64,000 nt of DNA, taken from contig NW_018404085.1 in NCBI RefSeq assembly GCF_002113885.1, positions 217,761 to 281,760 of the forward strand, in the 5' to 3' direction. The translations under genes were made by a program, and so were the position numbers. Source of the DNA: Mizuhopecten yessoensis (Eukaryota). The notes beneath the pieces were generated by a model. That model was not told the origin of the DNA. It was given only the letters and a program-made list of their open reading frames with translations, and made no database searches. Numbering within the stretch: the first letter of the stretch is position 1; each line of letters starts with the position of its first letter. Positions 38,206-63,711 of this stretch are shown piece after piece.

Positions 38206-38501
38206 TTCTACTGTTAGGCAAACCGGAAGTAACACCGAACAACCGGAAACTACATGGACAGGTTTAAAACCAAACGGAAAGGGGGTAACGTTTGAATATA
38301 TCAGAAATAAAGTATGAAAATAACAAACCAAATTAAGTTACAGTTACATAAGTTTTTAATCTTATTTTTCAAAATAAGGGTAACAGTTCTATATACTAAT
38401 GTATATTACTCACCTGTAATATTGCTTTTACTCTAGAATCTGAATTTTCCCATAGTAGACGTTTCCAAAACGTACGAGAAAAACAGAAAAAAGATGGCGG
38501 C
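38206..38501. promoter_or_regulatory. Bidirectional promoter of TMEM199/SFSWAP
   Basis: Divergent ATGs 288 bp apart; ETS/GABP-type CCGGAAGT at 38223 and CCGGAAAC at 38243; YY1-type AAGATGGCGGC over the SFSWAP ATG. Confidence 0.75.
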
Positions 38502-41500
38502 TGCCCAGTGGTGGGCACAAGCTAACGAAGAAGAAAACCGTCAAAGTAAAGCACAAGAGGAGCTCTTTGTTTTCGGATATGCTTGTAAGGTGTTCCGGGA
38601 TGATGAGAAGGCTAGTTTTGTGGACCAAGAAAAACACCTGATCCCATGGATGTCCGACGACAGAGTTCTTATTGACAGGTCTGTTCTCCATACAACCTCA
38701 GGAGCCACAAAAAAAGGTTTCGATTTGAGTCGATTTTCGCGCATTGTACTAACAACTGACCTTAGTTTTCAGCTTCGTGGATTTACAGGGAGTATGTGTT
38801 TACTGGTATGCATCGGCAATGACCGTTATGTATGCCAGTATTCAGATGAACTCGAGACGAACCCCCTTCTTCTGACCTTGCCCTTGGTTCGGAGAAAGGA
38901 ACGATGACAGACCAGAGTCTCAGACTGATGGACGATGGTGGAAAGACGTCACACTTCCATTGATAGTCAAACAACTTGATAAGACTTTTTCATGTTCTGT
39001 CATATTTATTGAGAATGTCAGCAGTTGGCGTTCGCTGTTGTCCAGATGTTTTCAGGAATTTGTTTTCAGATGTGTCTACCTTGTATATTGATGATGCGAG
39101 ATGCAACAAGAGTGTCATATCAAACTGTATGAACTGGTATGCCATGTAACAGGTATCAGTATGGAACAACACAAAACAACAAGAATTCCACATATTCAAT
39201 GTGGAAGAAAATAAAAAAAAAACTAGTATGTGTATGTTTAAATGTTCCTCATATTGTGCAATTGAATTGGATGAAACACTCGATGAAATCAAGTTTTTAT
39301 CTGTTTTAAAACACATTGCTCCAATTTGTGACTGCACATATTTCATCAAAATGACTAGTGTTTGATAGCATTAAACAGTGGTCATATTCATCCTTTTTTT
39401 GTATCAAATGAAACGAAATATTGGACTCAAATGTTTATTTGTAATTAATCACTTGCCTGGTACCTAGCTTTTGAAAAGACAAGTATTGTCACTGCTACTG
39501 AATAGTAATGAAAAAATATCTGTACTGAAGTACTACCGTTAAATACTCTTAAAAGTTGGCATACAAATTAAAAAAGCTTTGATGATTCAGTGTAAACCTC
39601 TTAGGTATAATAAAAGTGATAGGTTGTGTTACGATCATGAATCAAAGACTTTATTTTGCTGTTAAAACATAACTTAGTGATGCAGGCTTCTTTTATGAAG
39701 ACAGCTCTTACTCCATGACAAAAACAATGTTATGTATGAAACAACTTTTTCTGGAAATCACTTACCAATCCCATCAATCTAAATATGTAGGTACATTGTA
39801 TGTACTATCAATTCCAGGTTATACCGGGTAGAACTTGTAATTTATATCCAAAGGCAACAGCAAACATGCCAAATTTTCAAAGAAAACAAATCATTGACTT
39901 GTATTGAATAATAAATTTCAGTAATCATAAACTGATCTCCTCTCCAAGATAAAGCTAGTACAAATTTGTTTAAAAAAAATATATTTTGAGGTTATGTTGA
40001 TATCAGTGTTACAAGGATGAATATGTGATTTCAAATTGTAGCAAAACATTGCTTCTGGGGAGTAGCTAGGAAGTGAACACACAACATTGATTGTATCATA
40101 CATGCCAGATCTCTCTGCATGAGGCAAAAGTCTCACGGATTTACACCTCCGATAAAGTCTCAAGGCGTGGGACATGAATTAACGGAAATCCTCAAAACCT
40201 CAGTTTTTTTAATGATCGATTGCGATCGGTGAACCATTTTTCCTGTTGTTGTTTACTCGAAGTCTTAAGGGAATCCACAATGTTTTCAGCGATAAATCAC
40301 GAGAGCGATCATGTGATCGAAGAGCTCTTCTCATAACTTTCGGAAAATTAAGCTGGTTGAAATGGCTGGGTTTTTGAAATTGTGAGTTGATTTCAGTGTC
40401 TTTTACAATAGGCAATTGAAATAAATTAATATTATAGATTTAGTTTGATCCTTTCTTATTGTTGTCATTAATTTCCCTGATACTACAGAATGCCTGACAT
40501 TCTTAGTCTTATCACTGCGCAACGGTCTCGGACCTGTCGGCTTCAACATCAAAATTTTCCCGTGAAGTTGATACCTCACTATATCAGTAGAATTAGCAAA
40601 AACATGTTTTCTGTCATGTTTGTAAGGTTAGTTCATTGCTAGAAACTTTGATTAATACTATGTCCGGCTAAGTGTTTCTTTACAAATATAATTTCACTAC
40701 GAAAGTAAAGAGAACGACCGGTAAAGATGGACAAAGTCTTTGTTCTGAATGCAGAAATATGTAATTTAAAAGTTCAAATGCTAAACACAGTTTCTTCACT
40801 TTCACAGCTGATTATTTCTGTCCTCTTGCATTGTTATCCTGTGAAAAACACCGCGAATAAAAACCTCCCTTATTTTAACCTCAATTCCCTTAAAATTATT
40901 GTAAAACTCACAGATTGGTCTCAAAGAATTCTGGCATGTATGTTATAGTTATTCATTATACCCGTGTCATGTATATACTTCTGAGTTTCATCATACAAGC
41001 AACAAGCTTTGCACAGCCATTTATTCAGTTTCAAAAAATTAAAAGCATGATCTTTCAGTTGTTTCTATATTGAGTGTTTATTGATATAAATATAATGGGA
41101 CATTGTATCCCTTGTACATCAAATTCAATCAAATGTTTTGGAAAGCATACAATGAAATATTCTGATTCTTTAAACTACAATGTGTTGATGTGCTTTGCCT
41201 CTATTTTAAATTTTGATACATATGTATAAAATTTAAATACTGAGGTTGCATACACTGATTTAAAGAATAAGCAGTAGTGCAAAAAATGTCCTTTCTCAAT
41301 AATCTAAGCAATATTTCAATCACTTAATGCTGTGTATTGTTAGTATGATGTGGTTTCTATAGTGAAATGGCTGTCTCACTATATGTGCTGTTATTTAATT
41401 GAGTTTATGTTGTGTGACATTTCTGCATTACTCCTTTTCCTCCCTGTGATTAATATGGTTTTGTGCATCAGAAATATTCAGCTGAAATGTAGTCGTCCTG

Positions 41501-44500
41501 ATAAAGGGGGTACATTGATATTGATTATGATGTATATTGTCAGTATGACTTAACATAAACAGTTGGAAAAATTCAAAATTATCTGATAACCTATTTCTAC
41601 TTTTGAAAAAAGATCACAAGGTTATACACAGTAATTTACAACAAAAAATGCATATTTGTCAGCATATATATTATCATTTTGTGACTACAAAGTACGAAAG
41701 TTACGAGTTTTTGAAGATTTTTTCTCATTTAAAGTGGATTCAGAAACTATTTTTCAATCAAACATGCTGCTCAAATCACTTTCCAACTGAAATATGCTTG
41801 TTATAGCTGCAGATGAATACTTTTGATGTGCATTCATGTTTTCATAATATTCACCAAATGTGCCCCTTTATCTAGTTAAACAAATTCTGCTTCCTGCATG
41901 TAAATAGTCTTCTGTTATGCTTGCTCCTACCTGTCCAGGATCACCCAAGCTTTCTTTGTACTGTGTACTTGTTAATATAGGGTGTTTGCAGTGCTTGGGG
42001 AACCATGAGCCTGTCCTTACTGTGTTTTTGTCTGCCGACAGGTATGATGGACGAGGTCACTTGTTTGACCTTTCAGCATATGATGCCAGCAATATTAAGG
42101 ACACAGAACAAACACTGACTGAAGATGAAGAACAGATTGAGAAGCTGTGTGATGAGGAGCGTTTCCTGGAGCTGCGGACAGACCTGGCTGAGAAGACCAT
42201 GTATGAAGGTAGGGGGTTAAAAGTTAGATTCCAATGTTGGAGCTGCAGTAGCTTCTACACTGGACTCGTCAGTAAATAAATGGTATATTTATACTATTTC
42301 AAGTTAAAGTTCATTTTGATGTCTCTTTTGCCAATAAAAGGTCTATTAGAATGTTTAAATCTTTTAGCTGTTGCAAACACATAAAACCTCTGACAAACTT
42401 AGTAGAAAGCAATGAAAGCATATTTGATACATAATTATTATTGATAAACAAACTAGCTAGAACTGACAAACTAGCTTGAACTGACAAACTAAACTGACAA
42501 ACTAGCTAGAACTGACAAACTAAACTGACAAACTAGCTAGAACTGACAAACTAGATAGAACTAACAAACTAAACTGACAAACTAGCTAGAACTGACAAAC
42601 TAAACTGACAAACTAGCTAGAACTGACAAACTAGATAGAACTAACAAACTAAACTGACAAACTAGCTAGAACTGACAAACTAAACTGACAAACTAGCTAG
42701 AACTGACAAACTAGATAGAACTAACAAACTAAACTGACAAACTAGCTAGAACTGACAAACTAAACTGACAAACTAGCTAGAACTGACAAACTAGATAGAA
42801 CTAACAAACTAAACTGACAAACTAGCTAGAACTGACAAACTAAACTGACAAACTAGCTAGAACTGACAAACTAGATAGAACTAACAAACTAAACTGACAA
42901 ACTAGCTAGAACTGACAAACTAAACTGACAAACTAGCTAGAACTGACAAACTAGCTAGAACTGACAAACTATGACAAACTAGCTAGAACTGTTAACACAA
43001 TGTATTGTTTGTGATGCAGAAATATTAAATAGTCTATAAAAACACTACTTTTAATACCATACAAATCTTAATGTACACAATTTTCTAAATATGTTATGTT
43101 TTCAAATCTTGTGAAGCTTTGGCCATTATTCTTTTTCCAAAATGTCTAGAAAATTCACTGATAGCCACCAGTTAACTGTAACTGATGTTTTTTACAGAGG
43201 AGGAGTGGAAGCGTTACTACCTGTCCCTGTCCGAGGGATACAATGCTGTCGGCTTCAGCTATGACTATGCTCAGCAAATGGCAGCTGAGCAACAGCCAGA
43301 GGTCAAAATTGGTGAGAAGATGCCTCTCATTGTACTTCTAAGTGAAAAACTTGTGCATTGTAATGTTAAGACATAGAAACAGGTCAGTTTCAAGATGTGT
43401 AGCAAAGGAGAAAATCACGCCTAATATTGCTCTTTTTTATCATTACCAGGTATATCTGATTATGTTTTCTTTATATGAACACCACTGTAAAAACAAGTCA
43501 GACATTATATATATTTTTTCAAAGAATTTAAGTTCTAGAATTATAAATATATGATATTGTGATTTGTTTGCACAGAAGCAGTAGAAGATAAACCATTTGT
43601 TGTTGCCCCAGAGTTACATGTACCTCCTGAAATCAATGTGGTAAGTTTATCATAATAAACATTCAGAATAAACAGCATAACTGTTTATAATCAAACCAAA
43701 ATAACATTTTAATGAATTGAATTAATCAATACAGTTTGTGCATTGTGATCTTTGCCTCTTGATGATGATATGAAACAATAAAGGAATAGAATTAATATCA
43801 TAGAATTGCATGGTCTGAAAAAAATGTGGAAAATCATCTGTGAACTGTGTTCAGATTTCTTTCGTGCTGCATCAGTGTGAAATTAGCCTAACCGTCAAAG
43901 CCCAAGGCTGTTTTTAGCTCACCTGGCCCGAAGGGCCAAGTGAGCTTATGGCATGGTGCGGCGTCCGTCGTCCGTCCGGCGTCACCTTTTTACTTTAAAC
44001 AACTTCTTCTCAGTAACCAAAAGGCCTAGGGTGAGGATATTTGGCCAGAAGCATGCTTTGATGAAGGGCTACCAAGTTTGTTCAAATAAATGACCTTGGT
44101 TTATATTCAAGGTCACAGGGGTCAAATATGTTAAAAACCTTTCAACAACGTCTTCTGAATAACTGAAAGGCCTAGGGTGATGTCATTTGGCCAGTAACAT
44201 GCTGTGATGAAGGGCTACCAAGTTTGTTCAAATAAATTACCTTGATTTATATTCAAGGTCACAGGGGTCAAATATGTTAAAAACCTTTCAACAACTTCTT
44301 CTGAATAACTGAAAGGCCTAGGGTGATGTCATTTGGCCAGTAACATGCTGTGATGAAGGGCTACCAAGTTTGTTCAAATAAATGACCTTCATCCATTTTC
44401 AAGGTCACATGGGTCAAATATGTTAAAATCTTTATACAACTTCTTCTGAATAACCAAGAGGCATAGGATGATGATATTTTGCTAGTAGCATGCTGGGATG

Positions 44501-47500
44501 AAGGGCTACCAAGTTTGTTCGAATAAATGACCTTGACTTATATTCAAGGTCACAGAGGGCAAATATGTTTAAAACATTTAAACAACTTCTTCTGAATAAC
44601 CAATAGGCCTAGGGGGATGATATTTGGCCAGTAACATGCTTGGATGAAGGGCTACCAAGTTTGTTCAAATAAATGACCTTGGTTTATATTCAAGGTCACA
44701 GGGGTCAAATATGTTAAAAACCTTTCAACAACGTCTTCTGAATAACTGAAAGGCCTAGGGTGATGTCATTTGGCCAGTAACATGCTGTGATGAAGGGCTA
44801 CCAAGTTTGTTCAAATAAATTACCTTGATTTATATTCAAGGTCACAGGGGTCAAATATGTTTAAAACCTTTAAACAACTTCTTCTGAATAACCAATAGGC
44901 CTAGGGTGATGATATTTTGCTAGTAGCATGCTGGGATGAAGAGCTACAAAAGTTTGTTCAAATAAATGACCTTCATCTTTTTTCAAGGTCACAGGGGTCA
45001 AATATGTTTTTAACCTTTAAACAACTTCTTCTGAATAACCAAGAGGCCTAGTATAATGCTAGTAACATGCTGGAATGAAGGACTACCAAGTTTGTTCAAA
45101 TGAATGACCTTGACATATATATATTCAAGGTCACAGGGGTCAAATATGTTTAAAACCATTGAATGACTTCTTCTTAACAAGCAAAAGGCCAAGAGTGATG
45201 ATATTTGGCCATTAACATGCTGGGATGAAGGACTACCAAGTGAATGACCTTCACCCATATTCAAGGTCACAGTGGTCAATATATGTTTAAATCTTTAAAT
45301 CATTTGTTCTGCATAACCAAAAGGTCCAGTGTAATGATATTTTGCCAGATGCATGCTGTGTTCGAAGACTATAAACTCTGTTCAACCTAATGTCCATGTT
45401 CGACATTCAACGCCACAGGCGTCATAAAAAATTATGTTTAAATCTTTAAATAGGTTCTTAGGAATCAAACACTGATATTCTGTCTGTAGATGTATTTTAG
45501 TCCACTTTTTAAGATTACAAGTGTGAGATTAATACCAGGTGAGCGATGCAGGCCCATTGGGCCTCTTGTTTGTGCAAATCTAGTCCAGCTATGTTTATGA
45601 AATTGTATAATGAAGTCTTGTCATACTAATAAATGTATAAAAATGCAACATTGCAGTTTCATTGTGTATGTTAAGATATGTATAACTTTATTACCGTAAA
45701 AACCCATGTAATTTGCGCACCTGTGTAGTTTGCGCATGTACTTTTTGAGGCTGAAAATCGGGAAAAAAGCTTCTACTCGAATATTTTGCGCACCCAAAAA
45801 ATCTGGAAAAAAAAAGATGTTCATGGTCTATGAATAATTTTTTTTAAATATATTTCTATGATTTTTTTTCATTGATGTAAAATGATATTTAAAACCAAGA
45901 AGAAACTACGTAAAATGTGTATTTTGTTGCTTGTTTTCTTTGAATTATCTGATCACACATGACACACACGTGTGCACATATCGGCATACATCAATTCATT
46001 TTAGCAATATTTTACATAAAACATTTACTTGCTTACAAAAACATATCAATTAATAAGTAATTCGATGTTTAGTAACCGCTGATGCATATCTCCTGGTGAA
46101 GGACATAATTAGATACCTTTTATTGATCATAATTACGATCAGTGAAATGGGCTCGATTATGGCGGCTTGGGTTACGTCACTTCAAACCAGGTCATGTCAC
46201 AGTTCAGTTTGGCCACGGAAATAGATTATTTAAGTCCGTGGTTTGGCGATATTTTTTACAAATTACAATGCAGTAATTAGCTATCACTATCTCTGTGATT
46301 ACCCGTTAACAATAGCTCTACTAATTGAAATGATTTGCAGTCGCGATCGACGGACCGTGTTGTTGTTTTTTTCACTCACCAACACGTGGCGTGAATTACG
46401 AAGCCCTACTGCATTGTCATAACAACAGACTGATTTGACTGATAAGGGATTATAAAAAATATGTTTATACTAGAAGCGTGGACAATCAATACATCCTCTT
46501 CAAATCTACTCCAAGGAAAAATATAGTTAACGCAGACTATTTTTACAATGTTTCATTTAATAAATATTGAAATAATTCACGAGGTTATTATCAATCACGT
46601 GTTTACGTAATGTTAGACGTAATGAATCTACATTTTCGTAATAGTATGGGGAAACGCACTGGGGAAACGCACCGAGATGTCGAAACGTAATGTCGTAAGT
46701 TGATCTGGCATAGGAATTTGGCTAAACTTTTTTTGTTAACGGTTACCTATTTAATAATACTTTTCACATAAACTCGCATAACAACACATTATGTATCTTT
46801 TATTAATGCTTGACATAAACAAATTTGTTGACCGTCATTTGTCTTAGAGTTCCGTTTACCAAGGGAAATAATCCAAGATGGCGATCTCCCAGAATCGTCG
46901 ATCTTTTCCTGAAAAAAACTTGAAATTTTCTATACCTGTGTATTTTACGCACCCCCCACTTTGGGTATTAAATTTCTGAAAAAAAAGTGTTTGGGTATTA
47001 AATTTCTGAAAAAAAAGTGCGCAAATTACATGGGTTTTTACTGTATATTGTTGTATGTCATGCATGCGTATGTATAATAGACAAAAATCCTTTTATAGCT
47101 ATCATCATTGGCTTTCAGTTGACCCTTGACATGTAGTAATTTCAGAATTCAAATAACATTTCCCTTGGAATTTTGAGAGTTAAACACTTGTCAAGTAAAC
47201 CTGAGTGTCATAACACATTTTGGGGAGTAAAACATCTACCTCGAAAGCTCCTGAGTGACATTCTATTCTTTCCTTGTAGCCAGAATTAGAGAAACAGAAT
47301 GCTATTATAGAGAAGACTGCTAAGTTCATAGCAGAACATGGAGCTCAGATGGAAATCATTATAAAAACAAAACAGTCCAACAATGCACAGTTTGAATTCA
47401 TGCATTTTGAGAACACGCTGAACCCATATTACAAACACATGGTGAAGATGATAAAGTCAGGGAAGTATCGACCTAAGGCTGAGGAGATACAGGAGGACCT

Positions 47501-50500
47501 TGACAGCAGTAAGTTATTTAATGTTTGTACATATCTACTCTGATAAAGCTTTACCAGCTAGTTAGGATAAGCATAGGAGCGACAACAGCTCCTTCTTAAA
47601 TAATATTTGCTAAGAAATCTGTTAAAAATTCTGTCATGAGTGGTATGTACTGCTTCTTTAATTGCAGCTCAGATCTCAATTAGAACAAAATTGCTTTTAT
47701 TAAATGTTTAATATATCCTACCAGAGACTGTTTACATTCAGTCTGTCAACCAATCCATACATCCTTTTGATGGGAAGACGGGAGTAGATAGTATTTGCTA
47801 CATCTCACTGTCCATGCAGACTGTGCATGGTTTATAATACATATCTCAGCCAATTTTTCATGAATGGGCATCAAACTTTATACAACGGCACATTATGGGA
47901 AAGTTGTATTTCATTTCCTAAAGCAAAGTTTCTGAATATTGCAGGTAGAATAGTTGTATACCATCTTAACTTTGCAAGTGACATACAATTACACCTGGAC
48001 TGAAATTGATTTGATCTGCTGTATCACTGAGAGTCAATAACTCATTGAGTTGATGCATTGCAGGTTACGAAGAGGAACATCCAGACGGATACCTCCATCC
48101 AAGCCTCATGATCCAACGTGCCTCTCCCACCCCTGACCTTAAACCTATTAAGATGCCAACCGGGAGCATCCATGACACTCCCTATGGACAGCTCATCAAG
48201 TCACTTAAACGGTCCAACAAGCAGCATGACAAAGCAAGGCAAGTTCACACACAGGATCACTCTTCTCTTTAGAGTTCACACTGAGGACAACTAAGGATTT
48301 TTGTAATTGATTTCCTACTAATGTGATAACCATTATCACATCTAATGGCTGTGTAATAGCCCAGTAATCTTTACTGCCTTAATGATAACAATTTATTCTT
48401 TATGGTTGTGATGATTCAAAGCATATTTGGTTTACTTAAGCTGTGTAAAATTATGTTTTCTGATGAAAAGAACTGGTTGTTTTAGCAATGACAGCGGAGC
48501 AGACCGACAGCCCCACACAGAAGCGTCAGCCATACAGCCACCCCCACTGCCTCCTTACATGTCTCTACCAGAGTATGGCACTTCCAACTCAAGTTTGCCC
48601 CTCCCGCCGGGGCTGGAGCCTGTCACTCTCCCGTCCGCACACCAGCCCCCACCCCCACCCCCAGGGACAGATGTGGATGGTAACATCTACCTCAGCCAGG
48701 ACAGTCCGGCCAGTGAAGACAGCTCCTCAAGGTAATGTTATATGTATGGACTGTTTTGTTTTAGATTAAAAAGTGCCCATGTCTACAATAGGAATTTAAG
48801 ATCACCTTTAAATATACAGTCATCATGTTGACTAAAACGTTTAGATGCTACTGAAGATTCTTGCTTAAAGCAAAATTCTTTGCAAAAAATTGTATCAAAC
48901 TCAGTCTTTAACAAATTATGAACAGACTTCCTCCGGCACACATACACACATGCACCCATACACAACACACATGGAGGCACGTCCTTAAGTGACCTTAGCT
49001 GTTTATAACATTAAACCCCATACAACAAATCAGCCCTGTTGTTTATTATAATCATGTTCTCATATATTCATATACATTATTGGATATTTAATTTATACAA
49101 TGATTGTGTATGTTGTGTTAACAGGGATTCCTTTAGCATACCTGGTGCTCCACAGATTGTTCCACCCCCACCTGACCTTCAGCCTGTCATAGACAGAATG
49201 GCAATGTATGTTGCCAAGAATGGGGTGGAGTTTGAAATTGTTGTGAAAAGTAAAAACGATCCTAGATTTGCATTCTTGGAATCCTACCATGTCCATTTCC
49301 CATACTACAACTTCAAGAAAAATATCCATATCACAGTAAGTAATCAGTTTTTTTCTACTGTACACTGTAAGAGACCTCTCATATATATATGCCTGTGTTA
49401 GATACATACACGTACACTTGTATCAAAATACATAGATTTAAACACATATTAAAGTACCTATTAATATTCCTCCCTGGAAGAAAATGAACTAATATATAAA
49501 CATCTGTTTTGAAATTATATTATGTAAACCTGTTGCACAATACCTTTATCCATACCAGATCTTTCATTTTGTCATCTGCTTGACAGGAGACAGCCAAAGA
49601 GAAGAGGCGCTTGGAAAAGGAACGGCCTAAAGGGGTGAGCTTCAGCATCAAAGGCAAGCCTCGGGAACAGGAAAGTGCTTCATTGGAAAAACGTCAGGTG
49701 TTTGATAATGATAGCAGTGATGAAGAAGGTATGGAACCTTAATGTCCAAAAATAAACTTAAAATGTTCTATTCTTTCAATTAAAAAGTATTGAAAGTGAA
49801 AAACTCAGTTTCAAATTGTTAAAGAAGAGCTCTTTTTCAGGAAAAGCAGAATATCAGATCCACTTTAACTGTAAAAAGGACATGAATTTGCAAGTGAAGG
49901 CAGTGAGAGTATGGATAGAAAGCTTTAATGTGTTTTAAAATAACAGATCAAAAGATGACATATGCTTGTCTGCAGGTGATCGGGACAAGCTATACAAGTC
50001 AGACTTATCAGGGACATCCACACCTGTTGATGCAGATTTCATGTTGATGGAAAATACAAGACCAGATACTTCAAGGTCAGATACTTCAAGGTCAGATTAT
50101 TCAAGGGCAGAACAGCCTCGGGCGGAATATTCTAGGGCAGAGAACAAAGTTGATCGGGCAGAGTTGATCGAGAAGTTAGAACGAAAACAGGGTGAGTATA
50201 CAAAAGAGGTGATTCTTTGCTCTTGATCAAACTTTATACATTTCACCACATAGGGGGAGTACTTTTATAATCTCAATGAATGTGTAATGGGTAGTTTTAT
50301 AATCTTTACGAATGGTAAGCATAAGTGAAATACAGAACTACCAAAGCATTCATTTCAAAAGTTGTTGAAGTGTAACTGTTAAAAGAAGGTTTAAGATAAT
50401 TGATGAAAAAAGATGTTGCTTGAGGCCTTTTTTATGTTTTGAAGATATAAGTGGCTTACTGGTCGATCTCAACTTGTTATAAATGTATAGCCCATTAAGG

Positions 50501-53500
50501 TATGTATACATGTGTTTTGTTGTTTGAAGTAGTCATTTGGACGGAAAGAAGTGTCATTAATGTGATATATAACAGATATATAGTCTTTTGAAACCTGTAG
50601 AAGATAAGCTGGATGTTAATAACTGTTAATAATTGATGTTTTAGTGTGAGGGTAAGATTAAATTGTGTTAACCTTTTTTAATGTTTGTAATATTCAATTT
50701 CATTTGTACAAACTTTTGTATCCTTTAAATATGAAATATATTATTATTATCAAGATCTACTTGATATATTAGTAGCTGTTGATAATGTCCTCAAATTAAA
50801 ATAATAAGTTTAAAGTTATTAGGAAAGAAAAAACTGCAATGTCTTTTATGTTGTGAAACATATTTAAATCTGGATAATTTCCCAGGTGACATTGTAAGTT
50901 GGCTTGTATTGTAGCTGAGGAGCGTTTGAAGGACCGTATGGCAGCTGCAGCACGTGAGAAGCTAGTCCAGGCTAACAAAGAGAAACAGATGCAGGCCGAA
51001 AGGAAGCGCAAGGCAGCCATGTTTATCAACATGCTTAAATCTACCAATGTAACCACTTCCACCACCTCAGCAGCTGATGATCAGCGTGACATGGAGGAAT
51101 CAGGTGAGCAGGAAATTAACAAAATATATCTTCTTTGAATTGAGGTAGATCAGCTGAATGTGTGTTAATATATGTTACTGGTTTGAAGATATGAATGGAA
51201 GAAAACTGAACACAAGCATTGTTTGACTTTAGAAGTATTATTTTTCTAAAGGTACATTCTACTGTTATGTAAGGGCTCCACATACGAAATGCAGGTGCCC
51301 TATAGTAATTAGTGTCCATAGATCTCTCTGTCTGTACGTTCGCACTTTCATTTCCCGAAATAATATTATAATTCTAAGTTCGAATTTTACATGGCGATTA
51401 ACTTTGATAAGAAATGTGCAAAAGGGTTGTAAAAGGTCAAGGTCATTAATACTTAAAAATAGACTGTTTGGGATATTCCTTTCTTGGAATCCAAAAGACT
51501 GATTTTTAGGCTTATGCCATGGTGTGGCGTCCGTCATCCGTCCGGCGTCAACGTAAACAACTTCTCCTGAATAACTAAGAGGCCCAGGCTGATGAAATTT
51601 GGCCAGTAGCATGCTTGGACAAAGGGCTTCCAAGTTTAATCAAATGAACGACCTTAGCCCATATTCAAGGTCACAGGGGTCACTTGTCTTAAAAACCTTT
51701 AAACAACTTCTTCTGTACATATAACCAACAGGTCCAGGGTGATGATATTTGGTCAGAAGGATGTTGGGATGAAAGGCTACCATGTTTGTTCAAGGTCACA
51801 GGGGTCAAATATGTTGAAATCTTATAAACGACCTCTTCTGAATAACTAAAGCCTACAGGGTTATTGCTTGTTCATGTGAATGACCTTGACACACTTTCAT
51901 GGTCACATTTTGTCCATAGTGCATAAATCTTCTCAAGTAAAAGTCATTTTCTCAATAAACAAAATGTATAGGGTGGTTTTATTTGGCAAGTTGCACCTGG
52001 GATGCAGGGCTATTTATAGTTCATGTCTAGGTTTGACTTTCAAGGTCACAGGGGTAAATTTGTTTTAATCGTTTAACAGATTCTTCGGAATTACTTTAAG
52101 TCAAGACACTGATATTTTGCCTGTAGCTTTATTTAAGCTTTACTTTCAAGGTTACAATTGTGAGATTAATACCAGGTGCGCGATGTAGGCCCATTGGGCC
52201 ACTTGTTTTGACAAGGTGATACACTGTAATATGAAGATGTGCCAAAAGGGCTTAAAAAGTTTCTTATGACAAGATCACTGTTTATCAAAACAAAAAGGAG
52301 AGAGGGGGTATTGTCAGACACATGACAAGGCTCTTGTTGACCTGTCAGTGTTCTAGTTAGTGTCTGTTTTGATATGGGGAAATATTTGCATTCAACAGGG
52401 TCAACAGGTACACCTATAGGCAGCCGTTCACAAACACCTATTACTCAGGAGGAAGACCGACTCAGCGACTACTCGGACCGGTCCTCAAAGTCATCTAAAA
52501 AGTCTCGAGAAAGAGGCTCATCTCCACCCTCAAGGTCACGCAAGTCACCAAGCCCGCCATCTAGATCAAAGTCTCCCAGGAGGAAACGCTCCCCAATACC
52601 ACTAAGTGCTTATGTTAAAAGTAGAAGGTAAACATCAAGTGTTTCCTAAAGACAAGGCCACTGTATCTCCGCCGAGTAATTGTGGGCTACAGTTTATGAA
52701 GTGCCCTATATATTTTGTAAAATTACTCTAAAGTGCTTGACAACATATGGATTATAGTATTAGTTATAATTGTTTTAAAAAAAAACAAGCTTACAATTAC
52801 CATTATACATTAAGCAAGAAGATACCAAATAAGAACACCAAACAGTGCATAATTATCTAAATTAAATGTTAATTGATCATCCAGTGACTGACTTCAAATC
52901 TTCTAATTTTTAAAGGTCATCATCAAAGTCACCTCACCGAAGACCTATACTAAGGACACAAAGTCCTCCCAGGAAAGACAGATCAAAGTCGCCAAGATAC
53001 AGGGTAAATCCTTCTTTATCTCCTGGAAGGTCAAAATCAGTGAAGAGGTCACGATCACCATCACCTTCTAAAAGCTCCTCAAAATCCAGTAGAAGGTCAC
53101 CAACACACAGTGTCAGAAAATCAAAAAAGAAGAAGAGGTCTCGTTCTAGGTAGGTGTGATCCAGAATATAGTCCACTGACCGCGAAGTTAAAAACCTTGT
53201 CTAGGTAATGGTGTATCATATAGATCTACAATAGTCCTAAGTCTTTTAAAAAACGCTTTTTCAGAATAAATTGTATGGGATTGATGGGAAACCATTTTTC
53301 AGAGCCCAAACGACACTTAGAATATTAATAATAATAATAATATACAGCATTTATATAGCGCCCTATATAATTTGTAAAATTACTCTAAGGCGCTTTACAA
53401 CATATGGATAATAGTAATGGTTATAATTGTGAAAACAAACAACAAAGGCTTGCAATCACTTTCATACATTTAACAAGCAATGTGCACATAATTGAACAAA

Positions 53501-56426
53501 TAAAAGGGTGGTATTTACATGACGTCTTTGCAAAGATTNNNNNNNNNNNNNNNNNNNNNNNNNNNNNNNNNNNNNNNNNNNNNNNNNNNNNNNNNNNNNN
53601 NNNNNNNNNNNNNNNNNNNNNNNNNNNNNNNNNNNNNNNNNNNNNNNNNNNNNNNNNNNNNNNNNNNNNNNNNNNNNNNNNNNNNNNNNNNNNNNNNNNN
53701 NNNNNNNNNNNNNNNNNNNNNNNNNNNNNNNNNNNNNNNNNNNNNNNNNNNNNNNNNNNNNNNNNNNNNNNNNNNNNNNNNNNNNNNNNNNNNNNNNNNN
53801 NNNNNNNNNNNNNNNNNNNNNNNNNNNNNNNNNNNNNNNNNNNNNNNNNNNNNNNNNNNNNNNNNNNNNNNNNNNNNNNNNNNNNNNNNNNNNNNNNNNN
53901 NNNNNNNNNNNNNNNNNNNNNNNNNNNNNNNNNNNNNNNNNNNNNNNNNNNNNNNNNNNNNNNNNNNNNNNNNNNNNNNNNNNNNNNNNNNNNNNNNNNN
54001 NNNNNNNNNNNNNNNNNNNNNNNNNNNNNNNNNNNNNNNNNNNNNNNNNNNNNNNNNNNNNNNNNNNNNNNNNNNNNNNNNNNNNNNNNNNNNNNNNNNN
54101 NNNNNNNNNNNNNNNNNNNNNNNNNNNNNNNNNNNNNNNNNNNNNNNNNNNNNNNNNNNNNNNNNNNNNNNNNNNNNNNNNNNNNNNNNNNNNNNNNNNN
54201 NNNNNNNNNNNNNNNNNNNNGCGTTCATCCAGATACTGATATCTGTCAGACAAGCTTCCAGACTTTCTGAGACTGTATTCCAACTGTCCTGTGGTTTTAT
54301 GACCATGTAAATTTGTGTGTCATCAGCATAGCAATGATAGCGAAGGCTATGGCGACGACAAATCTCTCCAATCGGTTTGGAGTACATACAATATTTTCGT
54401 GGTCCTAACACCGACCCTCGAGGAACCCCAAAATCTAGTACTTTGTCATGTGAGGTGGCAGATCCGATGGCAACACACTGTCCTCGTTCACTCAGGTATG
54501 ACTGTATCCAGCATAGTGCAGTATCGGTCACTCCATTATTCCATACGTTTATAAAGTATGCCATGGTCGATGATGTCAAATGCAGCTGACAAGTCCAGCA
54601 TGACAAGCACCGCTCTGCACTTGTTATCCAATGCAGAAGCTATATCACTATGTTCACGTAGGAGGGCCGTCTCAGTAGAGTGTCCCATGCGGTAGGCTGA
54701 TTGCATGTTGTCATGAAGACTGTTTGCATGGAGATGAACTTCAAAACGCCGGGACACAACCTTCTCCAAGATCTTAGACAGAAAAGGCAGATTTGAAACT
54801 GGGCGGTAGTTTTTCAACTCCTCCTTGAATATTGAAACTGTTTAGTATGTTAAATGTTTACAGATTTGAAGTTAACCCACCACTGTTAAGTATGTTAAAT
54901 GGTTACAAATTTGAAGTTAACTGAGACTACATTTAATTTTACACACTTTTGCAATTTTTAGGAAAATGTGTCTATCAGAATCACTTTGTTATTACATTAA
55001 GATACCAATAGATTCAGTGTTTTCCAGCAGGGACACACAGTCTGACACCTGATGGTTGTTAATTACAGGTCTCCGCGTCACAAGTCATCAAGCAGTAAGA
55101 GAGTGGGAGATGTGATTGGTCCCGTCCAGATCTGTGATCTAACCATTAAACAGGAACCAGGGTTGTTACAGTCAGCTACAGATATCACAGACAACATAGA
55201 CAAGGCCAAAACATACTCATATACAGACTTTTCTAACTTGTGAGTAGTCTTGGTAAACCCTTGCTGGATTGACAGGGTAGAGCAGCTTTAGCGGTTTATC
55301 AGTAATTTGACAATGTGATGGGCTTGTATGACAACTTGTGTTTAGAATTTCTCTTCTTCCTAATGTAAAAGCACTCTGTTAAATGATTGTTGTATTCATC
55401 ATGGTTCTCTTTTTAAATATTCATCAAATTAATCTTTCAAATATTATTGAAATTTTAAAAAAAGGAACAAAAATGTAAAATTATTTGACTATTATATGGT
55501 CTCTGAATATTTCAGTCCAGCTGTAGTCACTGGCTGAACATCAACAATGGCTATGTTTGCAGATGGTCGATTTACTGACATTATTGTTAAGAAATAAAAA
55601 ATATATATTCTGTTTGTAAATTATCTATAAAGAATATAATCAACATGAAAGAAATAATAAACCAATTAAATATTATGAAATTCATGCACATATTTACAGA
55701 CCCCCCTTGCCTGACTGTCTGCCCCCAGAGCCCCCGTCAGACTCGAGGGCACCCCTCCCTCCACTACCTCCATTACCACCGGACTCTGATAGTAACAGCT
55801 GTAGTTTACCAGGAGATTCCAAGGGCGAGGAGAAGACTGTATCCAATGTAAGCTTTTATAATAATCCACTTATCAAAAAAGCTTCAACAAGACACAAATT
55901 TAAATCTGTTTAATCAAATAAATTTGGATATTTAATGATTATATTTTGTTAATGTTAATGTTAATATTTTTTTTTATATATATCTGCCAGGTTGTAAGCT
56001 GGACAATGAATGTTGGTTTATTATTGTAATAATATTTATAGGTACACATTTGAATGAAAAGACAACTCTCAATTTGATTTTCAAAAGGGTTCTTTCGACA
56101 TTGCCCTAATCTTGTTTCTAATAAGGTGTATATATCATGGTTAACTGTAAATGTGACCTACTCCCTTGTTATGTGTCCCGGGTAGTGGCCGCCTTCTGAA
56201 GGGTCAGATAAGTGTCTACTTCCTGAATGGTCAGATAAGTGTCTACTTCCTGAAGGGTCAGATAAGTGTCTACTGCACCCTGTGTTGGCACACTACATTT
56301 CATTCTTACCAATTTTCTACCAAAGTGTGTCTCTTCTGTTTCAAGTACATGTTGAACCGTGTCAGAGCGATCATAAAGGCATCACGACAAGCCATTCTAC
56401 AAGAGGAAGGATTTGATGATCCCTAA
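38494..56426 (+). CDS. SFSWAP: Splicing factor suppressor of white-apricot homolog, ~933 aa, 16 exons
   Basis: Exons 38494-38678, 42042-42208, 43198-43311, 43576-43640, 47280-47508, 48064-48238, 48486-48731, 49125-49335, 49587-49728, 49976-50191, 50915-51103, 52399-52627, 52916-53149, 55069-55239, 55700-55847, 56346-56426; all phases consistent. DRY_EERY domain ([40 protein letters not shown]), two SURP domains ([18 protein letters not shown]; [13 protein letters not shown]), [13 protein letters not shown] domain, C-terminal VRAIIKASR. Confidence 0.95.
40265..40893. mobile_element. Possible TTAA-flanked non-autonomous DNA element (Kolobok-like)
   Basis: Termini TTAAGGGAAT ... ATTCCCTTAA; CpG-enriched interior. 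The TIR is very short. Confidence 0.35.
42450..42990. repeat. Composite 18/13-bp minisatellite with an exact 80-bp higher-order unit
   Basis: Subunits ACTAGCTAGAACTGACAA, ACTAAACTGACAA and ACTAGATAGAACTAACAA; the 80-mer restarts at 42501, 42581, 42661, 42741, 42821 and 42901. Confidence 0.95.
43911..45571 (+). mobile_element. HINE/Helentron-type element with ~146-bp internal satellite
   Basis: 5' TTTTTAGCTCACCTGGCCCGAAGGGCCAAGTGAGCT plus (CGTC)n; about 10 units containing TGACCTTG..TCAAGGTCA; 3' CCAGGTGAGC subTIR, GGCCCATTGGGCC hairpin, then CTTGTTT. Confidence 0.9.
45694..47043. mobile_element. Non-autonomous Tc1/mariner-pogo element, 1350 bp
   Basis: 27-bp TIRs CCGTAAAAACCCATGTAATTTGCGCAC / GTGCGCAAATTACATGGGTTTTTACTG; TA on both sides; no transposase ORF. 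Confidence 0.9.
51503..52209 (+). mobile_element. Second copy of the 43911 HINE family, with fewer units
   Basis: Same CATGGTG.GGCGTCCGTC head, same unit sequence and same 3' end TACCAGGTG.GCGATG.AGGCCCATTGGGCC.CTTGTTT. Confidence 0.88.
52690..52860 (-). mobile_element. Short decayed L2/CR1 3' tail
   Basis: GCCCTATATATTTTGTAAAATTACTCTAAAGTGCTTGACAACATATGGAT matches 53360-53410. Confidence 0.75.
53327..54826 (-). mobile_element. 5'-truncated L2/CR1-clade LINE with RT remnant
   Basis: [59 protein letters not shown]; frameshift near 54540; (TTA)n tail; GAATATT duplicated at 53320 and 54827; partly in an N gap. Confidence 0.93.
56195..56275. repeat. 29-bp tandem repeat x3
   Basis: CTGAAGGGTCAGATAAGTGTCTACTTC core. 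Confidence 0.85.
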
Positions 56427-61247: not shown

Positions 61248-63711
61248 CTATGTAGAATGTCGAAGCCTGGAGTAGACGACATGAGCCACCCCAGACACCA
61301 AGGCATGGTTAGCAAACTCCAGTATATGCTGCACCAGAGGGTAGGCTGGTGATGAACTGTCACTTGTGCAAATCTTCTTTACCGGAGGACTATAGTCGTG
61401 ATCACTACCCCTATGTCCACGCGGGGAAGCTCTGCTAGTCCAGCTCACAACCAGCTCCTTCATACAACTGGGGAACACAAGGTCAATGATGCTCTCAGCT
61501 GGAGGCAAGTTGTCAATACAGTTTATATGCCCTTGTTTGAAGTCCTCCACCCTTTGAGAAATCTTAGGCTCAAACTTGTGGAATTCTTGACCCAACCACT
61601 GACTGACAATGTGTAAAAACGTGTTCCTTTGTGAGGAATTTCCCCAGGTGTCATATGCATTGTGGGTGCTTCCCCCTGTCCCTAACATATCTAGGTACTC
61701 TTGAATTAACTGAAATGGAAATCCTTGATTTTCCTCCAGATGTATTTCTTGCATTAATAATTGGAGTACAATACGAAACCTTTTTACAACAGGAAAGAGG
61801 TCAAGATTGTGGTAATCAGGTTGCATTTGAACAAGGTATTTTATTAAAGTCTCTAGAACACGAACACATTCCTTCATCACATCTGTTCTTGAACACTGTT
61901 TTGAATAAGGTTTTTCCTGACAGTTTGTTTTGGAGCATTTTCCATGAAACTTTGTTCCATCTTTTGTACAAAATAAACAGGAGGGAGTAAGAACAGCCAA
62001 TGTTTCCATGGTGATATCTGTCTGAGGGGAGGAGTTTCTAAGTGTTGCAGCTTTAGAATTAGTTTTCAGATAGTCTTGAACTATTGAGACATATTGATCA
62101 GTCTGAACACCCACAGAAACCTTTGTAACAGTCCGGGGCACTGTGTCGATCTGTGTTGCCTTACTACAGCAGAGTGGCTTGTGCAGTAAGCTCCTTTCCA
62201 ACCCAGATGTTTGACATGTTCCCCAAATTGTTTCACCATCTTCATTCACTGTTGATTGAAATGATGGACAGTTTATCAAGCCACATGAGTGACAGAGGTG
62301 AACACTGTCGTCTACAAGGCGATTCTGTCCTCCGATCTCCTGTGCACCCTCTTCTCTAGTTTTGAAAGAATTGCAGGGATGGACTTTGTCAGCTGTTAGG
62401 AGTTCTTTTCCTTCCAACACCTGTATATTGTCCTCACTTTTAGAATCGTGACTAAGGACATTGTTAGTTGCAAGGGGTGTCTGTCCTACTGTCACATTGG
62501 TATTCTCTTGAGTGTTGGTTGTGTGCAAACCATTTACAACATTATCCAGCAGTAAATTCCCATTAATTTGGTCATGTTTTGCCACAGAGTTATCAGGGAT
62601 TGTGTTTTCATCCCTTGAATGAAGACCACTACAACTGTTCCTGTTGTGCTTAACCAGCTCTATGACAACCTCTCCATCTGTCAAGGGAAACAACTCCTGT
62701 TCTTCATCTAGGCGGTGCGAATGTTCACTACCCATATTTGGCAACAATTTGTGGTCCTCCTGTACAACAGAGCTAGGATTGTTGTGGAGAACATGAATGT
62801 TCAGTGTAACACTGAGACTATCTGGAAGATTGTCGTCGTGATATCTACAGAGCCAAATATCCTGCAATGAAAGAAAAGTAAAAAACCTCAATGGTACATT
62901 ATATAAACAACAACAAAAATTGGACTTATTACTAATGATTGAAGGTAGAGTGTCCCAGTGCTCTGTGCTGTATTTCAAACAAAGTAGAGTTCCAATTCCT
63001 TCAGCATTTTTCTTACTTGGAGTTGCCCGTAATGCTAGCCCATTTATTATAGAAGAAAAAACAATAGAATACTGAAGGGTCAACACAACCAAACTCAAAC
63101 TCAAAATCAATAAAACTAGGGCATATTATGAGCAAAGGAAAGAGTTACATGGGGAACCTTGAAAAAGTACAAGGCAGGGTGTCCCAGCTAAGAGCAATAC
63201 ATATGAAAAATATAAGTACTTTAATTTCCATTTTCACAAAAATGTGTTTGCTCCACTAGGAATACATGTGTTTGACAGAGCTTATCATTTCTAACTTCTG
63301 CACAGTCATTCATGATATTTGTTATATAGGGTAAACAGTATTTTTTTAAATGGTGAGGCCCCTGAAATTAATAAAACATTTGATAGGAACCAAGGTTATA
63401 GCTGAAATGTCTACTGGGAGCAAAGGCGTCTTGATTGTTTTTATTGGGAACAGATGTTGCTCAATTTTTTCACTGGGAACACAATTAATGTGGCTGGATT
63501 ATACAAAGGGAACAAAGGTGGCTAGATAACAAAGGATGATGGATTTTTGACATTCCACAATTTAATTTAAGAATGAAGATGAATACCTTAAGTTTTGACA
63601 GGCAGTCTCTTTGTACACTTTTTTCCTGGTATTCAAACACCACCTGGAACACACCGCGGATGTTGTAGAACCATACCGTAGTGCTGTGACTCACTCCAAG
63701 TACACGGAAGT
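61248..63711 (-). CDS. Uncharacterised protein, last two exons; 5' end outside the window
   Basis: Exon 63711-63587 (CCCACAG|, DFRVLGVSHSTTVWFY..LSKLK|GTATTC) joins in phase 0 to a 1.6-kb terminal exon 62861-61248 (TTGCAG|DIWLCRY...YPLVQHILEFANHALVSGVAHVVYSRLRHST*). The first ~83 aa of the listed ORF are intronic. Confidence 0.85.

Follow-up and report, generated by a model that had tools for sequence, protein, structure and literature searches.

The start of intron 1 of the SFSWAP gene of Mizuhopecten yessoensis holds a real, conserved feature. The gene is a single-copy locus in the window analysed here (64,000 nucleotides of contig NW_018404085.1; positions below are those of the window, and features of the gene are on its plus strand). 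There is about an even chance that retention is switched by the conserved first 100 to 160 bases of the intron, where a nearby decoy acceptor would occupy the weak donor, and such a switch would likely serve feedback by SFSWAP, by analogy with fly and human. Feedback through retention of intron 1 is a known circuit, which limits the surprise; the donor-proximal element is, as far as the literature searched goes, new. The locus lays out, by comparison between species, a small set of candidate parts, namely the base at donor +3, a 22-nucleotide motif, a branch site, an acceptor and a stem. An earlier note, made from the letters of this DNA, had proposed an autoregulatory decoy or poison exon here, and its coordinates and motifs were all correct by sequence check.

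A large share of the RNA-type contigs keep intron 1 (38679..42041, 3,363 nucleotides). When exon 1, intron 1 and exon 2 were taken as one query, of which the exons make up only about a tenth, 14 runs of guessed RNA type from nine studies contained 90-99% of its sampled words, and the contigs of four of these runs, one per study (X1 to X4), were mapped. All four hold both a GT..AG joint that skips the 3,363 nucleotides and contigs through the whole intron, the intron contig running unbroken from 38651 to 40115, 40306, 40896 and 40306, respectively. Exon 2 (42042..42208, 167 nucleotides, starting GTATGA) is spliced to exon 3 (43198) in every run, and the contigs are taken to be spliced RNA because those that hold exon 2 bridge intron 2 and carry on in exon 3. 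The depths of the intron contig and of the spliced joint are 14.6 and 20.2 (X1), 59.7 and 55.9 (X2), 15.8 and 55.5 (X3), and 53.9 and 37.1 (X4). At its 5' and 3' ends the intron gives concordant retained ratios (0.42/0.40, 0.52/0.46, 0.22/0.23 and 0.59/0.52), and the retained share of intron 1 comes to a rough 20-60%, with one depth per contig. The contigs start at 38445-38515, around the start of exon 1; cover is missing in the four runs upstream of 38445 and over the first 230 nucleotides of intron 2, and neither gap was used as evidence. None of the four runs has a joint or a listed loose end at 38773, 38791 or 38805, contigs being prone to drop rare forms. Of two checks that the earlier note had set, retention was seen in the RNA-type contigs of all four studies and use of the 38773 acceptor was not: within what contigs can show, RNA retains intron 1 and no use of the cryptic sites is visible. 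A micro-exon insert of the predicted kind between DR and YDG is present in none of 320 database proteins, three of which carry other inserts. The oyster-like exon-1 read-through protein P0031 is found on 849 contigs of public runs, of either RNA or DNA origin, an abundance that may hint at common retention of intron 1 in that species too.

The donor of exon 1, CAG/GTCTGT (38676..38684, exon 1 ending at 38678), has a pyrimidine at +3, where animal donors nearly always have a purine. It is the only one of the 15 donors of the gene to do so, all 14 other introns having a purine, and it scores 4.2 against 6.7-10.3 for the 13 other GT donors, whose scores are inflated by the training of the donor matrix on those same 13 sites. 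Gene callers read exon 1 into the intron, so that database proteins carry translated intron starts (read-through tails). Among the 120 of these proteins that a profile of exon 1 alone listed, D-R is followed by S in 67, by L or F in 35, and by Y, C, R or a stop in 18, which places a pyrimidine at +3 in 102 of this redundant set. Metagenome DNA gives a similar picture: 51 of 52 loci were trimmed where the exon stops (L046 was excluded, its match being too short), yielding 39 distinct starts, of which four have no intron and 35 were counted, and +3 is C or T in 29 of these 35, two clades contributing most of the rows. R-S-V, encoded by GTCNGT, occurs in termite-like, wasp-like and mollusc-like proteins and in others that are presumably vertebrate-like. 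Judged by these comparisons, the off-consensus base at +3 of the weak donor is conserved across many animals; the earlier note had rightly called the donor weak and had overlooked how deeply this is conserved. Five of the metagenome loci (L019, L024, L026, L027 and L030) have no intron at the D-R-Y position, through intron loss or an origin of the contigs from transcripts.

The best-conserved piece of the intron start, likewise overlooked before, is a 22-nucleotide motif, AAGGTTTCGATT-TGAG-TCGATT, at 38714..38735 (intron +36 to +57). KGFD, KVSI and RFRF, found in different read-through tails, are the three frames of AAGGTTTCGATT. The motif was evaluated by the compatibility of read-through tails with its back-translation, compared with shuffles. 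AAGGTKTCGAT is compatible with 22 of 62 long tails against a shuffle mean of 0.26, at +26 to +38 in 20 of them, with 12 of the 22 carriers being near-identical oyster-like proteins; it is also compatible with ten of 74 representatives at 50% identity (0.47 in shuffles), seven of the ten in frames that the query could not have favoured. Among S-V tails collapsed at 90%, AGGTKTCGAT fits 21 of 60 against 0.43 in shuffles (maximum 2), in all three frames, and among the other tails it fits none of 24. Carriers include oyster-like (80-84% identical to Saccostrea), mussel-like (97% to Mytilus) and gastropod-like proteins (89-90% to Candidula and Elysia), together with many without taxonomic placement. 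In DNA, AAAGGT with two sense-strand copies of TCGATT in the first 75 nucleotides is found, as in the window, in L002, L011 and L017, three of 33 loci. Alignments of the window with L017 and with L002 were each matched by none of 300 nulls, and the L002 alignment spans motif, branch site and AG. The two-part motif has one match in its own genome and no other copies. Homologous loci were not found in prokaryote genomes or viral contigs. The segment is kept in other molluscs, where the earlier note had asked for it, and in more distant animals.

KTCGATTKT alone is compatible with 14 of 62 tails against 8.1 in shuffles, which is not above chance, and insect and vertebrate copies are therefore leads only; the sole amniote-like match (P0203/P0259) may be due to chance. 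Moth-like tails with FDxFFTIRLL (P0085, P0095, P0120, P0123 and P0124) and other insect-like tails with LGFRLHLV (P0087 and P0093) are conserved just past the donor, and TCGATT can be encoded in both; from their sequences, these tails are possibly an insect version of the element. A stem between the two TCGA copies, whose core is self-complementary, is also possible, the four near-invariant copies offering no countable covariation.

It is highly improbable that these are chance motifs in an ordinary intron whose cover stems from DNA or unprocessed RNA. Such an account would fit the guessed type of the runs and their selection for holding the intron, but conservation in three frames is far above shuffles, and in all four runs exon 2 contigs reach exon 3 across intron 2. 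An explanation that we consider quite unlikely is that the motif is a promoter-near DNA element, or that the cluster of GTATG protects against early polyadenylation through U1, with retention a by-product of a weak first donor. TCGAT presumably resembles the DRE/BEAF core; the motif is less than 300 nucleotides from the transcript start, in a CpG-rich stretch (observed/expected 0.89 versus 0.33-0.47 further on), and intron 1 contains eight AATAAA or ATTAAA hexamers. GTATG occurs eight times in intron +1 to +560 against 0.74 expected, in a stretch picked after looking. Against this, every one of the eight copies of TCGATT across the four DNA sequences is in the sense direction, the distance between donor and motif is fixed (+26 to +53), and branch site and AG come after the motif.

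The branch-site consensus TACTAAC at 38747-38753, followed by a second branch-like sequence, ACTGAC, at 38755-38760 (together 38747..38760), is the single plus-strand copy in the window, the minus strand having three. The cryptic acceptor that follows (38761..38772, ending TTTTCAG at intron +94) was not seen in use; its pyrimidine tract is short. On a crude matrix trained on the SFSWAP gene's own sites, the 38772 acceptor scores 6.2 and a second AG at 38788 scores 11.9, the real acceptors of the gene scoring 5.1-12.4. A branch-like CTRAY, TTTCAG and a donor within 40 nucleotides coincide at this one place of the window and at no other, both strands included. A branch-like pentamer 14-32 nucleotides before TTTCAG at +85 to +116 is compatible with ten of 42 tails against 2.0 in shuffles (maximum 6); the cryptic acceptor is conserved by the same count and in the DNA alignment with L002, the alignment with L011 not being significant. 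The branch site of the window aligns with L002 and L017. The earlier note had called the branch point perfect, which holds for the TACTAAC of the window and not for the three relatives with DNA, which have other letters there. Motif, branch site and acceptor, all within 100 nucleotides of the donor, are on this comparison conserved as nucleotides and not as protein: exon length, frame and read-through tail all vary, so that neither the exon nor the tail is under protein selection. Reading through intron 1 would give a protein of 137 amino acids with a stop at 38905, and this protein was rejected as a product, homologous tails differing in length and frame.

The unequal conservation of these parts bears on a rival explanation that we hold as a tentative possibility, in which retention comes from the weak donor together with a silencer, AAGGUUUCGAUU/UCGAUU, to which an adaptor would bind and bring in SFSWAP, with the branch-like site and AG secondary. 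In a variant, ACUAAC is no branch point and instead presumably a site for a protein of the STAR family (QKI/HOW). Conservation is far stronger for the motif (21 of 60 against 0.43) than for branch site plus acceptor (ten of 42 against 2.0), L017 has the motif and CTAAC with its next AG near +111 and a donor cluster near +430, and the weak donor is kept in lineages without the rest of the element. A silencer by itself would need neither branch site nor AG, however, and both align in L002 DNA; several mollusc-like tails, read in different frames, also have branch site, pyrimidines and TTTCAG in unchanged sequence and at unchanged intervals.

Downstream of the acceptor is a candidate decoy micro-exon region (38773..38835) with the second AG at 38788 and donors at 38792 (GGA/GTATGT), 38806 (CTG/GTATGC) and 38830. 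The predicted 19-nucleotide form (38773-38791) shifts the frame and stops at GTA TGA, at the start of exon 2. The 33-nucleotide form (38773-38805) would add 11 codons with the frame open, the third donor would give an in-frame form of 57 nucleotides, and the AG at 38788 with the donor at 38792 would make an exon of three nucleotides that adds one Glu. The claim in the earlier note that every splice outcome disrupts the domain does not stand, given that the 3-, 33- and 57-nucleotide forms stay in frame. The cryptic donors are less conserved than either the motif or the branch site with its acceptor: they are clear in P0021, whose tail ...HISG..RTGSMCVYW fits the acceptor and both donors (with 21- and 37-nucleotide equivalents), compatible in P0051, weak in L017 and different in L002 and L011. 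L017 has CAGGGAGTATG at +426, 320 nucleotides further in, a match reached by 21 of 300 nulls and not significant alone. L002 (intron +255 to +295) and L011 (+284 to +330) share a cryptic exon candidate of 29-31 nucleotides of their own (TTTCAG ... G/GTAAA; three of 300 nulls).

A stem-loop of 13+3 base pairs, two of them G-U, is predicted at 38801..38840 (z -3.9, the best of 43 windows over the first 1.5 kb). The donors at 38806 and 38830 would form the two arms of this 16-base-pair stem, with modelled unpaired probabilities of 0.0 and 0.14. At this offset L002 and L017 have no counterpart, and L011 has a strong stem (z -6.1) of unrelated sequence. Positions 1220-1285 of L011 (intron +101 to +165) hold a cryptic acceptor, a seven-nucleotide exon, a consensus donor (CAG/GTGAG) and then a stem. 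An Rfam search of 38600-42100 gave seven matches at E up to 5, all under the gathering score and none over 38714-38840.

These forms and folds weigh on the second half of the earlier proposal, a poison micro-exon at 38773-38791 that is truly spliced in, its product being destroyed by nonsense-mediated decay. We judge this unlikely. The stop made by the 19-nucleotide form would suit it, as would the acceptor and both donors retained in P0021 and the rarity in contigs that is expected of degraded forms; in C. elegans, a cassette event of swp-1 creates a stop and changes strongly in mutants of nonsense-mediated decay (PMC2265522). On the other side, none of the four runs has a joint or loose end at the three cryptic sites, two of the three donors are predicted to be paired, and retention alone explains the non-spliced RNA that is seen. 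A poison exon should also bring a stop with every inclusion, and the 33-, 57- and 3-nucleotide forms leave the frame open.

In the retention switch that we favour, U1 at the weak donor and SF1, U2AF and U2 at the branch site 70 nucleotides away would assemble across 94 nucleotides and stall. The motif at 38714-38735 and the stem that hides the downstream donors could aid the stall, and the hiding of these donors would make real inclusion of the micro-exon unlikely. The stalled complex would keep the weak donor from the true acceptor 3.3 kb on. SFSWAP may stabilise the stall through its second SURP domain and SF1, as human data suggest, and more SFSWAP would then give more retained, non-productive RNA. 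Of the earlier proposal of an autoregulatory decoy or poison exon, the retention and conservation that it implied were found and a spliced poison exon was not, in four runs; the decoy survives without spliced inclusion because decoys are rarely spliced (PMC12017769, PMC6097662). Decoys are expected in retained introns over 1 kb, and the retained intron 1 has 3,363 nucleotides.

Several observations weigh against the retention switch. The exact TACTAAC is changed in three relatives with DNA (TTTAAC, CTTAAT and CCTAAC), exon length is not conserved, and GGGAGTATG is compatible with two long tails only (P0021 and P0051). The motif is missing in 30 of 33 DNA loci, among them termite-like loci and a large worm-like group, and these keep the weak donor, so that the donor alone may suffice. 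The window aligns with L011 no better than 23 of 300 nulls, which is not significant. All that a read-through tail shows is a capacity to encode the motif, homologues lack independence, and some members of the set in which 21 of 60 tails fit came from searches seeded with tails of this sort. Contig depth is a poor measure of the retained share, the runs were picked for holding intron 1, and none of the listed runs is recorded as RNA, the type being a program's guess and the RNA status resting on spliced joints. The human decoy candidate is about 2 kb into the intron and not beside the donor (PMC12017769), and binding of SF1 to SFSWAP was not seen in co-immunoprecipitation (PMC4666396).

A more ambitious proposal, which we regard as doubtful, is that AAGGUUUCGAUU...UCGAUU, next to the donor with its pyrimidine at +3 and to the proximal branch site, is the RNA address of SFSWAP, an element that bivalves, gastropods and more distant lineages would have preserved for over 500 million years. 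SFSWAP, by way of SF1 or an adaptor, would freeze the spliceosome there on a mini-intron of 94 nucleotides, and the lone acceptor would be a decoy and not an exon.

The gene is a true member of the SFSWAP / su(w[a]) family by its encoded domains, with DRY_EERY, two SURP modules and an RS-rich region all present. P0127, a database protein of 933 amino acids whose exon 1 is identical to that of the window, maps letter for letter onto 16 exons from 38494 to 56423, and among named proteins it matches SFSWAP of Mytilus, Haliotis and Patella best. The N-terminal DRY_EERY domain (Pfam PF09750) is matched on exons 1 and 2, its first part in coding exon 1 (38494..38678, ATG at 38494; E 2.5e-12); the two Surp modules (PF01805) are matched in later exons, in regions 47280 and 49125, and the RS-rich region of P0127 is encoded by exons 52399-53149. 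A second DRY_EERY gene is on another contig (G000:C1369:827571-827657, L056), has no intron at the D-R position and is presumably CLASRP-like, judging by its FDVRAHLD motif.

Other features of the intron and its surroundings were recorded. A second cryptic-exon-like cluster at 39040..39165 has acceptors at 39055 and 39069, a further cryptic acceptor at 39045, and GTA donors (39127, 39137, 39146, 39153 and 39159), and may be a second decoy of 57-103 nucleotides; it has no significant match in L002, L011 or L017 (69, 79 and 269 of 300 nulls as high) and no splice joint in the four RNA-type runs. The same seven letters, GACAGGT, are at both ends of intron 1 (38672-38684 and 42035-42047), a repeat that may stem from the Arg-Tyr codons alone. 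Splicing of exon 1 to exon 2 re-creates a donor-like CAG/GTATGA at the start of exon 2, use of which would skip the 167-nucleotide exon and shift the frame. A short interspersed repeat at 40800-40945 in intron 1 attracts many unrelated contigs in all four runs. Intron 2 holds a tandem array (42448-42991) of 6.8 copies, 98% alike, of an 80-bp unit, and intron 4 another (43993-45358) of 9.4 copies of a 146-bp unit. Intron 6 (48239-48485) is a GC-AG intron (AAG/GCAAGT). Reverse-transcriptase-like fragments, which we take to be of LINE type, are on the minus strand at 53515-54841 in intron 13, partly under N, and a 625-codon open frame of another gene (61248-63125, minus strand) is downstream of SFSWAP.

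How SFSWAP, an essential global splicing repressor without an RNA-binding domain, finds its targets, its own first intron included, is open according to PMC12017769. SFSWAP widely promotes intron retention and may act through SF1 (PMC12017769); its second SURP domain binds SF1 in pull-downs in vitro (PMC4666396). The donor-proximal element makes RNA recognition by SFSWAP testable and could serve as bait for the missing adaptor. Neither a proximal element nor a mollusc SFSWAP intron was found in the literature searched, although work on fly and worm from 1987 and 1994 may hold an earlier description of conserved intron-1 sequence, and a literature search for UCGAUU together with splicing gave no match.

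The nearest known systems are fly su(w[a]), which autoregulates its first two introns (cited in PMC12017769), and human SFSWAP, whose intron 1 retention is 0.079 in control cells and 0.021 after SFSWAP knockdown, with a probability of change of 0.86 (PMC12017769 supplementary file 6). All are of the same gene family, with the first intron retained in steady-state RNA. The human intron interrupts the D-R-Y codons just as the intron here does, and exon 2 has 170 nucleotides in human and 167 here. In contrast to the fly, only intron 1 was seen retained here, and the share retained seems greater than in human cells (a rough 20-60% versus 8%). The candidate cis-element is defined here by conservation, whereas none was found for fly or human in the literature searched. 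Human intron 1 has a candidate decoy of 137 nucleotides (chr12:131713517-131713653, PMC12017769 supplementary file 7), about 2,070 nucleotides from the donor and 417 from the acceptor and one of 2,398 listed rows; gene, intron and proposed role are the same as here, and the position is non-homologous. The first 4 million characters of supplementary file 16 of that paper have no SFSWAP row.

Poison cassette exons, such as the stop-creating event of C. elegans swp-1, which is sensitive to nonsense-mediated decay (PMC2265522), share with this locus a splicing-factor gene and one predicted form with an early stop, but here no spliced inclusion was seen in four runs and several forms are in frame. 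Decoy exons are short, conserved and rarely spliced, often with several competing splice sites (PMC6097662). Like the decoys in SF3B1 intron 4, OGT intron 4 and ARGLU1 (PMC6097662, PMC12017769), the candidate is in a retained intron over 1 kb, here too of a splicing-factor gene, and has a conserved cryptic acceptor and several weak donors, not seen spliced in the four runs; its micro-exon is likewise short, the SF3B1 decoys having 29-56 nucleotides. In contrast to them, only 94 nucleotides separate its acceptor from the authentic donor, neither exon length nor frame is conserved, a stem is predicted to hide the donors, the upstream motif is better conserved than the exon, and the animal is an invertebrate. 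The decoy mechanism has been described in vertebrate cells (PMC6097662, PMC12017769), and this locus would extend it to molluscs.

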